This document shows positions 9,516-48,550 of a stretch of 64,000 nucleotides of DNA, in pieces (positions within the stretch are counted from its first letter, which is position 1; every line of letters begins with the position of its first letter). This DNA is from Octopus vulgaris (Eukaryota). Location of the stretch: assembly GCA_951406725.2 (NCBI GenBank), contig OX597833.1:21638001-21702000 (forward strand). Direction: 5' to 3'. Position numbers and translations under genes: made by a program. The notes beneath the pieces are model-generated. The model was not told where the DNA came from. It did no database searches and saw nothing but the letters and a program-made list of their open reading frames with translations.

Positions 9516-9985
9516 TATATATATATATATATATATATATATATATACCAATAGCTTTATCTATATATATCATCATCATCATCATCATTTAACACACCCG
9601 CTTTCCATGCTGGCATGGGTTGGAAGGTTGGATGGGACCCAGCCAGGTAGAAGACTGCTCCAAGCTACTGTGTTTGTTTATGTATATGTTTATATATAAA
9701 ATATTTACCCTATATATTATGTATATATATATATATATATATATATATATATATATATATATATATATACACACACCAAATATATAGCAATACCACCCTG
9801 ACTGCCGGTAGCTATCTTGGACTTCCTGTATTTCTTTATTTGGCAATCCAAAGTGTGAAGGAGTTGGGTTCCCATTAGGGGGCTTGTGAAACTTGAAGTA
9901 GCACAGGACTGAATCAACTACTTTCAATGACATATGTATGTATGTATATATATATATATATATATATATATATATATATATATAT

Positions 9986-10190
9986 ATTTATTATATAGAA
10001 GGAGCTTCTACAGGACTAGTACTGTTTCATTCAAGAGAAATCTTCAGGAAGCTGAGCTTCCTGAAGATTTCTCTTGAATGAAACAGTACTAGTCCTGTAG
10101 AAGCTCCTTCTATATAATAAATTAATTTTACTCTGCTATGTATTGAGTACCTTACTTACTGTGGTTAACCCCGAATCAACCCGGGACCTA
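9986..10190 (+). mobile_element. Fold-back element with hammerhead-like core (Penelope-like terminus) in (TA)n
   Basis: Perfect 137-bp palindrome 9986-10122 (1-nt loop). CTGAAGA(10061)...GAAA(10080)...GTC, then AATAAA and a ~70-bp unique tail. Confidence 0.7.
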
Positions 10191-10323
10191 CATATATATA
10201 TATATATATCATCATCATCATCATCATTGTTTAACTTCCACTTTCCATGCTAGTGACCGCGTGTGTACCGTTGGCGATTTTTTTTCCTCTGTCTTCCCTT
10301 CTCTAGATCTTTCCTTCTCCTAT

Positions 10324-10358
10324 GTTTCCGACGAAGAGCTCCGCTCGAAATGTTAAAC
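10324..10358 (+). ncRNA. Minimal type-I hammerhead ribozyme motif (variant core)
   Basis: gttt-CCGACGA-a-gagc tcc gctc-GAAA-tg-TT-aaac, within a ~200-bp element ending in (TA)n. Confidence 0.6.
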
Positions 10359-12586
10359 CCTCCTTCCTTCCTCCTTTCCTGAGCGTCCAATAATACTATA
10401 TTTGTTCCACATCCTCGCGTTGTTGTGTTTTTTTTGTGCTTTCTTGTTTGGATTAACTATATATATATATATATATATATATATACATATATATATATAT
10501 GTCTTTGTATATATGTACGAGGGGACAGCCATCATATGTATGTATATATATATATATATATATATATAGATGCATATATACATACATACATACATTACAT
10601 ACATACATATACACACACTACACACACATACATATATGCATGCACACACACACATCAGAATGGATAGAAAATAGATGTACGTCTGTGTGTGTGTGTGTGT
10701 GTGTGTGAGTGTGTGTATGTGTGTGTGTGTGTGTGTGTGTGTGTGTGTGTGTGTGTGTGTGTGTGTACATAGATGATATTGTAGATCACTAAGTAGGAAA
10801 CTAATACAGATTGCTCTCTTTGTCTGACTGGAGCTTTGATCTGAAATGCTGGGCAGAGATTGGGAAACAAGATAGTGTATCATTTGATCTCATAAATATA
10901 TGAAGATGTGCGGGTTTTGTGCCCACATGCGTGCATGCGTGTGTGTGTATGTTTGTGTGTGTGAGAGTGTGTGTGTGTGTTATGCCTTAGGGTGTATTTT
11001 TCTAAGGCAGTATGCATGTGTTTGTGTGTATGCGCATATGTGCATGAGGGTGATAGAAAGCCCATAATAACATGTTTATCAGGAGACATGAAGCGAAGAA
11101 CGTACAAGAGTACATGTGTTTTTAAAACAAATGGGCCATCAGGGCCATATGGAAATACAACAAACAAACAACCATTAATCTAGCATTGATAAACTATAAT
11201 CTCTAATCTGAAAACTCTGTGTGTCAAGATGTACTGGAAATGTCTGGTTTTAAAAGAAAACCTGTTGATATTATCAGGAGTCGGGTGGGGGGGATGTCTT
11301 GTGGGGTGATTGTTATTTTTAAAATTCTTCCATTTTATCTTTGCTAACCTTAGGTCATGCGCTCATGTCATTAACATAATATCATAATCTCTGTTGCCAT
11401 TATTAGTAATGAGGTGAGGTCTGTTTTGACAAGGAACATGTAAACTCTTGGGCAATGTCAAGAACAACAGAAATCAGGAGATAGCCCACTCACCTCCACC
11501 ATGCCAACAAACACTGCCCTCCCCCCCGACCCCGCCAGGACCACTGCCACTGCTGCCACTTAGAAAAATCGGTTCATTTCAAATCGTTATTTTATCAAAA
11601 CAACAATAGCAACCAACAAACAAACAAAAAAAACTAACTCTTCTGATAACTTCATTATTTTGATAGTAAACAATTAAGCACTTGATAATCTTATTTAATA
11701 ATAGTATGTCTAATTAGCTTACATATGTATGAAGTGGAGGTGCCCTTGGTTTGTCATCATGTGATGGTTATAAACTAGTATTAATGTCATACAAGCCATG
11801 TTGTTTGTTTTTAGTCCTCCGTGATAAAACATGTCTAGCTATGGGGAAATATTACCTTGCTTGGAAGCAGGTACAAAATGACAACAGGGTGGGCATCTAG
11901 CTGTAGAAAATATACCTCAATAAATTTTACCTGAGCCATGAAAGCATTACCATTATACAAGCAATGTTGTTTATTACTAGTCTTTCACAAAAAGCATGTC
12001 TGGCTAAGGGAAAATATTACTTTACATGTAAAGCAGGTAAGTGCTTGTAACTGGAAGAGTATCTGGCTCTAGAAAATCTGCATTCATGGCAAGCATGAAA
12101 AAGTGCCATCGTCACCATCATCATCATTTAATGTTTATTTCCCATGCTGGCATGGGTTGGACAGTTTGACAGGAGCTGGCAAGCTGGGAGGTCTCATTTG
12201 GCTTGATTTCTATAGCTGGATGCCCTTCCTAATGCCAACTATACATTACAATATATGCTGGGTACATTTAACATGGCCCTGCAAGAGCGCTTTTTGCATG
12301 GCCCTGGCACACAACTCTTGCAGCGCAATCCTCCAAGGGAAGTGGCCTTAACACCTTTGCTGTCGAGGACAAGTCTTATGAGAAGTTCAGCATCCGGAGG
12401 TTGCCCTTCAGTACATCGTCCCATGTCTTCCTGCATCTCCCTCTTCTACCTGTCCCATCCCAGTCAAAACTAATTCTATAAAATATCTATATATCCCAAC
12501 AGGAGAAAAATATTTGTATTTCTTGAAAGAAATTGTCCATAAATATATATATATATATATATATATATATATATATATATATATAT

Positions 12587-12882
12587 AAGTATATTAGAAG
12601 TATTGGGGGTTATGTACAGATTTAATACATATGAAAGAAAAAGGTGTTCAGAATGCTGGATGGTTGTATATAAAAAAAAAAATTTATTTACATATCACAT
12701 ATTATTTCTTCAAATCACATATTTAATTACAATTTTAAGCACTTTCAACCACTACTGTAGTTTCAAAAGTGCTTAAGTATGTAATTAAATATGTGATTTG
12801 AAGAAATAATATGTGATATGTAAATAAATATATATTTTTTTTATATACAACCATCCAGCATTCTGAACGCTTTTTTCTTTCA
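12587..12882 (-). mobile_element. Fold-back element with half hammerhead in (TA)n
   Basis: ~250-bp imperfect palindrome 12632-12882, unique tail 12587-12631, GAAAgtgcTT near the axis, (TA)n on both sides. Confidence 0.6.
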
Positions 12883-46100: not shown

Positions 46101-46934
46101 CTGGAAAAAAAAAAAAGACAAGAGGAAAAGATATTTTAAAAGAGGGAATATTTAAAAAAAAAAACAAAGAATATTTGCTGTTACCATACAAACAAAATAT
46201 AAAATAATTCTTTTAATAAACAAAAATAAACGTGATAAGAAGCTTGCTTCCCAATCACATGGTTCTGGGTTCAGTTCCATTGTGTGGCACCTTGTGCAAT
46301 AACCTTGGGCCAATCAAAGCCGTGTGAATGGATTTGGTCGATGGAAACTGAAAGAAGCCTGTCATATATATGCGTGTATGTGTGTGTGTGAATTTGTCTC
46401 CCACCACTTGTTTGATAAATATATAGATATTATATATTAAGAATAATAAAGAGTATGGAGACTTGTACATATACAAAATTTTTTTGATAGCTATATACAA
46501 CATATCAACTATTATTAATATTAATATATACTCCAGGGGTAACCTTTACAGTCCAGCGTAGAGGACACAGAATTATCCATCAGAAGAATCCATGGAGTGA
46601 CTAACAATTAATTGTAGACACAAATGTTGGATACTGATTGTTGTGATATATATATATATATATATATATAGATAGATAGATAGATAGATAGATATAGATA
46701 GATATATATAAGATATGAGGAGTTTTTGTCAGAGTGATTCAAACTAATAGGTATGCTACTAAAATTCTGGTTTTGATTTGAACTACTGTTGAACTGCCGA
46801 CTATACCTACATACCTTCATTCATATATATATATATATATATATATATATATATATATATATATATATATATATATATACATACATACATATATATTATA
46901 TATATAGATTTATTTATTTCTTCATTCATGTTCC

Positions 46935-46969
46935 TTTCTGTTGAAGAGTGTAGCCTCAAAATGTAATAG
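46935..46969 (+). ncRNA. Highly degenerate minimal hammerhead-like motif (element ~46910-47058)
   Basis: ttt-CTGTTGA-a-gagt gtagc ctc-AAAA-tg-TA; same layout and tail style as the element around 10324. Confidence 0.4.
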
Positions 46970-47092
46970 ACTTTCTCACCTTCCCGACCATCAAATTAAT
47001 ACACCTGCTTGTTGTTTATACACCTGTCTTAGTCTTTTGTTTTCAGTAAATTTCAACTATATATATATTTATATATATATACACACACACAC

Positions 47093-47478
47093 ATATATAT
47101 TTGTTAAAGAGACAACAAACAATGAAAGCAAGACAAACATCTCAAGTCATATATGTTATTATTATTAAAAAAATTTGAAGTTTTACAGCTGTTTCTGGGA
47201 TATCTTGTCATTGGAAACAAACAGGGAAAATGTGAAAGGTATAGACAGCTGTGAGACTTTAAATTTTTCTAATAATAATAACATATATGAATTGAGATGT
47301 TTGTCTTGCTTTGGCATTTGTTGTCCCTTTTAACAAATATATATCCGTTGTATCGGAAATCTACAATGGTTTCATAACTCCTATCTCGGCTATGAGCTTG
47401 GAGCCCTGGTAATCTGTTACAGCACTTACTCAAGTGTGCCTAGTCATTTAGATCACCTGTGAATTAAACCCCCATACT
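47093..47478 (+). mobile_element. Fold-back element (palindrome 47093-47344 plus tail) with hammerhead motif at 47180-47218 (minus)
   Basis: Arms of ~100 bp. Minus strand reads gttt-CCAATGA-caagatatccca-GAAA-cagctg-TA-aaac; the right arm repeats ACAGCTGT. Confidence 0.7.
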
Positions 47479-48550
47479 TTGTATGTGTGCATATATATAT
47501 ATAGGTGCAGAAGTGGCTGTGTGGTAAGTAGCTTGCTTACCAACCACATGCGTGGCACCTTGGGCAAAGTGTGTTCTACTATAGCTTCAAGCCGACCAAA
47601 GACTTGTGAGTAGATTTGGTAGACGGAAACTGAAAGAAGCCCGTCGTATATATGAATGTATGTATATATATATGCTAGTGTGTCTGTGTTTGTCCCCCCA
47701 ACATTGCTTAACAACTGATGTTGGTGTGTTTACATCCCCGTAACTTAGCAGTTCGGCAAAAGAGACCGATAGAATAAGTACTAGGCTTACATTACAAAGA
47801 ATAAGTCCTGGGGTTGATTTGCTTGACTAAAAGGCGGTGCTCCAGCATGGCCACAGTCAAATGACTGAAACAAGTAAAAGAGTAAAAAGTAAGCGTAATA
47901 CATATATATACTTTATATATGTATATACACACACATATACATATACATGTCTATATGTATTGTGTGTGTTTTTGTCCCCTACTCCATTATCACTTGGTAA
48001 TTGGTGTTGGCTTGTTAACATCTTCAGTGTGTGTTTGTGTATGTGTGCATGTTTGTACTTGTTATTGTCTCCTTGTCTTGACATGACTTGATAGCTGTAA
48101 ACGAGTGTCACTGTCGTGTAAGCAGTGTCTTACATTTCCAATATTTTATGGAAACATTACCTTACCTGTCTATGAAACAACAATTAACATTGCAAACCAT
48201 TATGGAAACACTGTAGCTTACTTAAACTGTTATAGAAACCCTTCAATTGTTTTTAACAGTGCAACTTGAAGCAGATAAAGCTATAAATAATATTGTGTAA
48301 GTGTTGGATTAAAAGCACCTTTGGACAGAAAAAATCGAAGGCTGCCCAAGGAACTTGAGCCAAGATCTTCAGTAAACACAGCAGACATATTCTACCATTT
48401 TACCAAAGCAATTCTTTTTTTGCCACCAGCAAGATTTCTATGTTGACATCATAAAGATTTTAAATCTTTGAGACATGTGAAATAATTCTTTGTTTTTTCA
48501 ACAGTGGAACTCAAAGTAAGATAAAATTATAAATAATACCTTGTAAAATA

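Follow-up and report, generated by a model that had tools for sequence, protein, structure and literature searches.

The subject of this analysis is a 64-kb window of the Octopus vulgaris genome (G000:C20:21638001-21702000, on contig OX597833.1 of assembly GCA_951406725.2), in which short islands with hammerhead-ribozyme motifs sit in (TA)n microsatellites. We think it probable that the islands traced are insertions of the pseudo-long terminal repeats (pLTRs) of Penelope-like retrotransposons (Penelope-like elements, PLEs), and that they arise when (TA)n tracts are nicked and copying is primed internally, near the 5' end of the element's RNA. For the families that could be traced, a PLE origin is almost certain; that the RNA's 5' end is a capped start is a step towards which we lean. 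The original prediction had suggested that the islands may be a non-coding, fold-back class of mobile RNA, an idea that is not supported, since families A, B and C turn out to be pLTRs of PLEs that carry an open reading frame (ORF) and the centre of the fold varies from copy to copy. Its companion suggestion, that many independent PLE lineages target TA microsatellites here, is supported. The window copies of these three families are as follows.

9986..10192 (+): family B stub, Hydra-clade PLE by its motifs; inverted arm 9986-10053, direct arm from 10054, tail to ~10192
10054-10106 (+): family B hammerhead, intact; predicted cut after 10099, mirror motif at 10047(-)
10255..10458 (+): family C solo pLTR, PLE of Neptune type by its motifs; without inverted arm, core at 10328
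15397..15672 (+): family A stub, likewise a Hydra-clade PLE by motif; inverted arm 15397-15497, direct arm 15498-15598, tail to ~15672
15512-15574 (+): family A hammerhead, intact, with U4C; mirror motif at 15477(-)

The genome searched comprises 2.8 Gb in 227 contigs, and in it the sequences of families A, B and C do extend into PLE ORFs with reverse transcriptase (RT) and GIY-YIG regions, the masters being built as pLTR (with the hammerhead), tail and ORF, in 2.6-kb units for the Hydra families and longer ones for the Neptune type. A 21-mer from the family B tail has 2,740 exact matches genome-wide; 18 family B matches continue past the tail, 16 of them into ORF sequence, and two loci (L116, L117) hold open frames of 718 and 722 amino acids. 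The family B protein reads RWR (the lysine of RWK having become arginine), DKT, a linker CNCPDKTTC, CDLC and CMH, and a genome search with a Hydra RT query returned 9,106 candidates, of which 113 were scored. Insertion in (TA)n is found at 39 of 40 unselected family B loci. Among the selected loci is L049, a trimer of a 157-nt unit; the idea of a 157-nt circle, which came from this locus, was ruled out by the read-through into the ORF.

A separate observation concerns the frame itself. Many family B copies (L074, L075, L078, L082 and others) break the ORF at a run of C just after the RT thumb, leaving frames of ~506-524 amino acids, while L116 and L117 read through the run; a shared subfamily lesion, an assembly error and a programmed shift are all candidates for this break.

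Family A tells much the same story, with 1,559 matches that extend upstream, several of them in head-to-tail units ~2.58 kb apart with a continuous ORF, a protein with RWK, DKT, the linker CSCRNKELC, CGLC and CPH, and (TA)n ends in all 21 full matches checked (19 shown with both flanks). Both families have a single ORF with RT and C-terminal GIY-YIG regions by motifs, in a unit of <3 kb; both are without CCHH and have the CxCX5C linker and the CxxC and CxH that flank the endonuclease E and N; and both combine a hammerhead in the pLTR (U4C in family A) with (TA)n insertion. By these motifs, and by eye against the published alignment, families A and B are Hydra-clade PLEs. A fixed 271-bp palindromic unit, once considered for family A, proved to be an artefact of ranking, the unselected loci being heterogeneous.

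Family C was reached by another road: one copy follows a PLE N-terminal fragment, and searching with that fragment led to masters at L369 and L376, in which pLTRs 89-94% like the window copy flank an RT/GIY-YIG ORF. The master reads DKG, YIDD, a CX4CxxC linker and GIY-YIG, and those found are frameshifted; in Pfam the ORF matches GIY-YIG at E=0.002 and RVT_1 at E=0.1, both below the Pfam cut-offs. The motifs make this a Neptune-type element, with Nematis as a second candidate. The window core at 10328 carries U4C, an extra A after A9 and a minimal helix III, and a few family C tandems occur.

Could these islands be something other than PLE debris? We regard it as very improbable that they are distinct non-coding, fold-back, ribozyme-bearing mobile RNAs, or retrozymes with a monomer or circular RNA of their own, mobilised in trans. 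Such a class would suit the nearly fixed 5' end of family C (2,168 exact matches to its 5' 21-mer, with 0 of 30 extending through more than ~15 nt of shared sequence), the L049 trimer and the six families without an ORF link, and the accessible part of one preprint proposes that retrozymes derive from pLTRs (bioRxiv 10.64898/2026.07.22.740005). It sits badly with the fact that families A, B and C all flank ORFs, with the heterogeneous fold centres, and with L049 itself, where the linker is the ORF-side sequence that follows the tail and the two junctions differ, as fits template jumps. Tandem arrays of 150-450-bp hammerhead units were seen at 0 of 40 unselected family B loci.

We turn now to where the insertions stop. 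The first 40 listed family B loci were parsed into 23 fold-backs, 4 non-inverted stubs, 12 long copies and 1 unparsed, and the distribution is bimodal, insertions being either long or stubs of ~140 nt. Of the short ones, 25/27 reach no further upstream than the first base of helix I, an A, and 2/27 go beyond it; both arms end at this A, past the predicted cut site. Copies joined directly to the target number 88 at the helix I A (98 rows, reduced to 88 when 10 overlapping duplicates were dropped); a window of the same size lying 13-16 nt upstream has 5, and positions +8 to +11 have 19. The base that precedes the A in these 88 is G in 48, T in 15, C in 15 and A in 10, although the master has T there and the target offers T or A; by hand count the extra G stands at 48/88 wall junctions against 0/24 control junctions (Fisher P=2e-7). 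The window copy has this G too, at 10054, where the master does not, and it is at this G-A that partial tandems (L049, L059, L071) take up the sequence again. Family A piles up in the same way at the foot of helix I, with 74 loci there among the 100 listed of 109 rows, as against 11 loci 10-16 nt upstream. In the literature covered, in which subscription journals and supplements were incompletely represented, no account of such a 5' wall and extra G in PLE stubs came to light.

Two consequences follow. As the predicted cut site is intact in all target-joined copies, the templates were either uncleaved or bridged; and since the stubs were copied across that site, cleavage is not what defines these insertions. 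It is likely, judging from sequence, that the family B stubs are run-off copies primed inside the 5' pLTR of an uncleaved, capped RNA. The mechanism we have in mind would begin with the element's enzyme nicking both strands of a (TA)n tract and starting to copy the RNA from within, at two positions. That RNA would have its 5' end, probably a capped start, at the first A of helix I, and the extra G may well be the copied cap. Priming in the downstream pLTR would give long copies and priming in the 5' pLTR would give stubs; two cDNA ends joined by microhomology would yield the inverted arm, direct arm and tail, and a jump to another RNA instead would yield the partial tandems. Ribozyme cleavage, which is itself a prediction, would not be needed for stub formation.

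The palindromes bear on how the two arms came to be joined. In families A and B the fold centre differs among copies, so the palindrome is made at insertion and is not inherited from a palindromic RNA. The two arms share the subfamily allele in 46/47 two-armed loci and differ somewhere in 17/47, small changes being commoner in inverted arms (15/49, against 4/72 in direct arms, with some loci counted twice). An unlikely alternative, which keeps the same PLE origin, is that the palindrome forms by self-priming, the cDNA folding back at AGCT, AACGTT, TGGCCA or helix I, so that the wall and the G merely reflect these palindromes. Shared alleles are what such folding would produce, perfect AGCT folds do occur in 4/40 family B loci and AACGTT folds in most of the top family A matches, and self-priming has been proposed for rotifer PLE palindromes in the portion of PMC3846280 at hand. 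Yet non-inverted stubs pile up at the same base with the G, where an AGCT fold would give A; the G is nearly always single (two GG and one GGG in family B); three changes in direct arms are absent from the inverted arm; and the inverted arm has a fixed internal start of TA-like sequence, which is what a second site of priming would predict. On balance, the arm data suit two separate rounds of copying from one RNA slightly better than they suit fold-back copying.

Beside this, the family B arms show recurrent deletions of 1-2 bases at or just after the predicted cut site, in both arm types, which could mark an RT that crosses cleaved RNA or one that slips soon after priming.

It might also be argued that the wall is an RNA 5' end without being a start: an exonuclease could have halted at a protein-bound hammerhead, or the end could be spliced or otherwise processed, with the RT adding an untemplated base. 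We rate this as distinctly unlikely, since there is no consistent upstream-exon sequence at stub junctions and the added base is so strongly G, even if in families A and B the wall coincides exactly with the foot of helix I, and what lies upstream of it resembles a pyrimidine tract ending in TAG.

Running through these arguments, a number of observations weigh against the capped start, internal priming or PLE origin as we have set them out, and they deserve to be gathered in one place. The intron of Drosophila virilis Penelope ends at the 5' end of helix I, according to the available text of PMC4209133, and TA(G) is present at all three wall sites, where it offers microhomology to the target and resembles 3' splice sites. 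In family B the base that flanks the 3' strand of helix I is complementary to the extra G, so that a one-base snap-back could produce it; the pattern used for the upstream control takes in two family B subfamilies only; in family A the extra G (39/74) is always preceded by T, and fill-in of a TGGCCA palindrome explains it equally well; and a third Hydra family, with frames of 727 amino acids, has the G at only 2 of its 66 listed loci. The window copy of family A folds ~15 nt upstream of that family's pile-up, at the AACGTT palindrome; among 30 family A loci taken without selection, 15 are long. As for the proteins, sequence searches against Pfam and PDB left the RT and GIY-YIG of the Hydra proteins unrecognised, and a single-sequence fold, with a mean pLDDT of 34, gave no confirmation of either. 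Finally, six sites (9853, 12740, 19225, 36224, 37866 and 46935) are without an ORF link: for the families of 12740, 36224 and 37866, none of the 10-20 loci fetched showed a match to an ORF, those of 9853 were not ORF-screened, and no genome search was made for 19225 and 46935. Two further results point neither way, namely the extra-G test at the family A AACGTT site, where 11 loci only make it uninformative, and the contigs of four sequencing runs guessed to be RNA, in which no joint was found and which are unable to show starts.

If the capped start and internal priming are right, a broader proposal comes into view, which we offer tentatively and a little short of belief. Solo hammerhead stubs would be a regular run-off product of PLEs: the RNA would be capped at the first base of helix I, priming ~60 and 140 nt downstream would copy uncleaved RNA to the cap, and these events would outnumber full passes. 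Genomes would then record PLE start sites to the base, and one shared cause would serve for the thousands of orphan minimal hammerheads in animals, the layout of inverted arm plus tail, the partial tandems and the first step towards retrozymes.

The remaining islands of the window, together with one ORF remnant, are listed here by position.

9778..9932 (+): old repeat family (site 9853); hammerhead-like motif with an extra core base, window copy C3G
12594..12889 (-): family D fold-back, tail on the left (site 12740); full motif in relatives, no ORF linked
15822..16135 (-): family E pLTR, direct only (site 15866); long-helix-II hammerhead, core 15963
18440..18617 (no strand assigned): family F (site 18474); inverted arm with decayed hammerhead (core 18509, -), truncated direct arm and tail
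18690..18905 (-): family G (site 18731); PLE ORF-start fragment (~18900-18835) joined to pLTR, core 18786
19222..19310 (-): decayed hammerhead-like motif (site 19225); core 19303, G12A
25834..26149 (-): decayed Hydra-type PLE ORF remnant; thumb/linker/GIY-YIG region
36175..36330 (+): family I pLTR-like copy (site 36224); core near 36228, long helix II, decayed helix III
37855..37995 (+): pLTR-like copy of family J, which is old and has no ORF link (site 37866); its core, 37870, satisfies the intact-core descriptor
46905..47060 (+): family K pLTR-like copy (site 46935); family-wide non-canonical core, no ORF linked
47120..47480 (no strand assigned): family L fold-back (site 47180); left arm a decayed hammerhead (-, G5A), right arm and tail on +

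Four of these sites, 15866, 18474, 18731 and 47180, appear to be linked to PLE ORFs, more weakly than 10061, 15512 and 10324. A relative of family E (L160) has a Hydra-type linker and GIY-YIG region upstream, at E=2e-26 in one ORF match; a relative of family L (L186) has a weak PLE C-terminal match upstream, at E=1e-6; family F is 77-78% like the pLTR of the 727-amino-acid Hydra family at the DNA level; and in family G a PLE ORF-start fragment adjoins the pLTR, whose helix III, CCAATGG, is also listed for Hydra-1_oBim. Many of the individual motifs have decayed. The 12740 copy has lost its CUGAUGA half at the fold, whereas its relatives keep it; the 15866 copy has G5A, and its true core lies ~80 nt upstream at 15963(-); helix III or the cut site has decayed at 18474 and 36224; and helix I is weak and bulged at 18731. 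Relatives of family I are intact, and no ORF is linked to it. The 19225 motif had no relatives among the fetched loci, no genome-wide search having been made, and the 9853 family is best called a hammerhead-like candidate, not shown to be a hammerhead.

Some further observations belong to these families. The 727-amino-acid Hydra family (L113-L115, ~45 rows) holds dozens of near-identical intact frames on many chromosomes; it is very young and probably still active. Family K is abundant, and in 18/18 parsed copies A6 is replaced, mostly by U, with the helices kept; none of the 18 has a canonical CUGA, the commonest core being CTGTAGA (8). One additional decayed hammerhead-bearing copy, related to the 15866 family, lies at 17230-17400 (+) with its core at 17280.

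How many of these are hammerheads by a uniform standard? We applied a single descriptor (type I, intact core CYGANGA...GAAA...UH, helices I-III), with 20 block-wise dinucleotide shuffles of the window as background, and it returned six motifs at 4 of the 13 named sites, against a shuffle mean of 0.1:

10047(-)/10061(+), 10328(+), 15477(-)/15518(+), 37870(+): intact motifs under the uniform descriptor

The motifs are thus well above shuffled frequency, and of the dozen-odd islands first claimed, four stand as intact hammerheads while the copies at the other nine sites are decayed or variant; most of the listed window copies are fossils. Allowing one core mismatch gave 11 motifs in the window as opposed to 2.05 in shuffles, and a stricter version of the descriptor left the two mirror pairs only (4 motifs, against 0.03 in shuffles). 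To reach a density of about one motif per 5 kb, decayed copies must be included, since intact motifs alone run at ~1 per 11 kb of window. In the repeat-biased locus flanks (397 kb), 29 motifs with A6 variants allowed come to 1 per 13.7 kb. Compensatory pairing across families can be read from the descriptor output, and a canonical core is present in genomic relatives of families D, E, F, G, I and L. A check of the window with the Rfam covariance models found no hammerhead at E<=1, and folding z-scores for 7 motifs were unremarkable (-1.6 to +1.1). The Rfam matches that did appear, to mir-9, mir-3199 and mir-297, are artefacts of perfect palindromes and TA/TG repeats.

Other parts of the first description fared unevenly. 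The placing of the islands in TA tracts was borne out, a (TA)5+ run lying within 200 nt of 11/13 named sites compared with 26% of random positions. The layout of inverted copy, direct copy and tail, reported for six elements, is found at five (10061, 12740, 15512, 18474 and 47180), with 10324 and 15866 direct only; the fold-backs are perfect at 9986-10122 and 15397-15598 and imperfect at 12625-12889 and 47125-47312. The statement that no RT or GIY-YIG ORF is visible was mistaken, given the decayed PLE ORF at 25834-26149(-) and the ORF-start fragment at ~18835-18900(-).

Elsewhere the window holds an ataxin-1-like gene in two exons, at 44519-46135 (-) and 40305-40949 (-), with an AXH domain split between both (Pfam E=2e-12 and 2e-23) and glutamine runs in the larger exon. 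There are many (TA)n tracts, an unusually long one of ~560 bp lying at 51546-52103, and a ~650-bp head-to-head palindrome of a common short repeat at 59042-59688 has a mirror layout like that of the hammerhead fold-backs. A decayed coding stretch at 7669-8900 (+), in which Pfam found nothing, has the look of a hAT-type transposase.

When we set these elements beside known systems, using the accessible portions of the papers cited, much proves to be already in print: hammerheads in pLTRs, solo and opposite-strand motifs, the inverted copy with its tail, (TA)n targeting and an octopus Hydra element. The nearest relatives are the Hydra clade, including Hydra-1_Obim of Octopus bimaculoides (PMC8557442), which families A and B resemble in their <3 kb length, single ORF, RWK or RWR, DKT, CxCX5C linker and CxxC and CxH around the endonuclease E and N; in a hammerhead of type I whose helix III is a small palindrome and whose helix II is often closed by a U.U pair; and in (TA)n insertion, the inverted 5'-truncated copy and the tail. 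The supplement lists Hydra-1_Obim with a (TA)n preference and a hammerhead, and the inverted copy, tail and (TA)n bias of PLEs are described there more generally (Craig et al. 2021, PMC8557442), so that at the level of the clade our families are terminal repeats of known PLEs. By eye, families A, B and the 727-amino-acid family differ from the published Hydra-1_Obim sequence, and they are ~40-43% identical to each other; the fixed 5' wall with its extra G is present here and does not figure in the accessible Hydra description, which counts the making of inverted ends, tails and solo pLTRs, and the role of the hammerhead, among its open questions. Family C, again by eye, reads closely like the Neptune rows of the alignment (CX2-5CxxC, DKG, CCHH), with the difference that its pLTR spreads mostly as a solo unit of ~200 bp without an inverted arm.

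The accessible text of PMC4209133 reports that genomes hold thousands of minimal PLE hammerheads each, belonging to many families; most stand singly and are called 'probably related to truncated PLEs', and some form pairs on opposite strands, separated by 100-700 bp. An extra base after A9, a palindromic helix III and weak dimer activity are also reported; the motifs are treated there as truncation products, with no mechanism given, and the octopus adds U4C, A6-substituted and long-helix-II forms. Descriptions of PLEs likewise include palindromic junctions, solo pLTRs and a pLTR promoter (PMC3846280, PMC2377424). In vitro, the Poseidon PAc makes AT-rich cuts in both strands and extends both; its initiation is internal, at two sites on either side of the tail, and uncleaved RNA is its main template (Frangieh et al. 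2024, PMC11167929). This is another clade, in vitro, and in the text available neither solo pLTR stubs nor a capped 5' end is tied to the internal initiation. Non-LTR retrozymes (PMC7229834) are similarly short, non-coding units with a type I hammerhead, and one trimer was found here (L049), but they are described as tandem arrays that are expressed as circular RNA, whereas here we have dispersed single or inverted stubs of an ORF-bearing element. A 2026 repeat annotation of O. vulgaris (PMC13282606) counts 31 recently active PLE families, hammerheads going unmentioned in what its main text offered. As the discovery of an element, then, this is ordinary, and the value that remains is mechanistic: the young family B, with its ~2,700 near-identical ends, intact frames of 718-722 amino acids, fixed stop base and extra G, furnishes a sharp prediction for 5'-end mapping and for the in vitro reaction.

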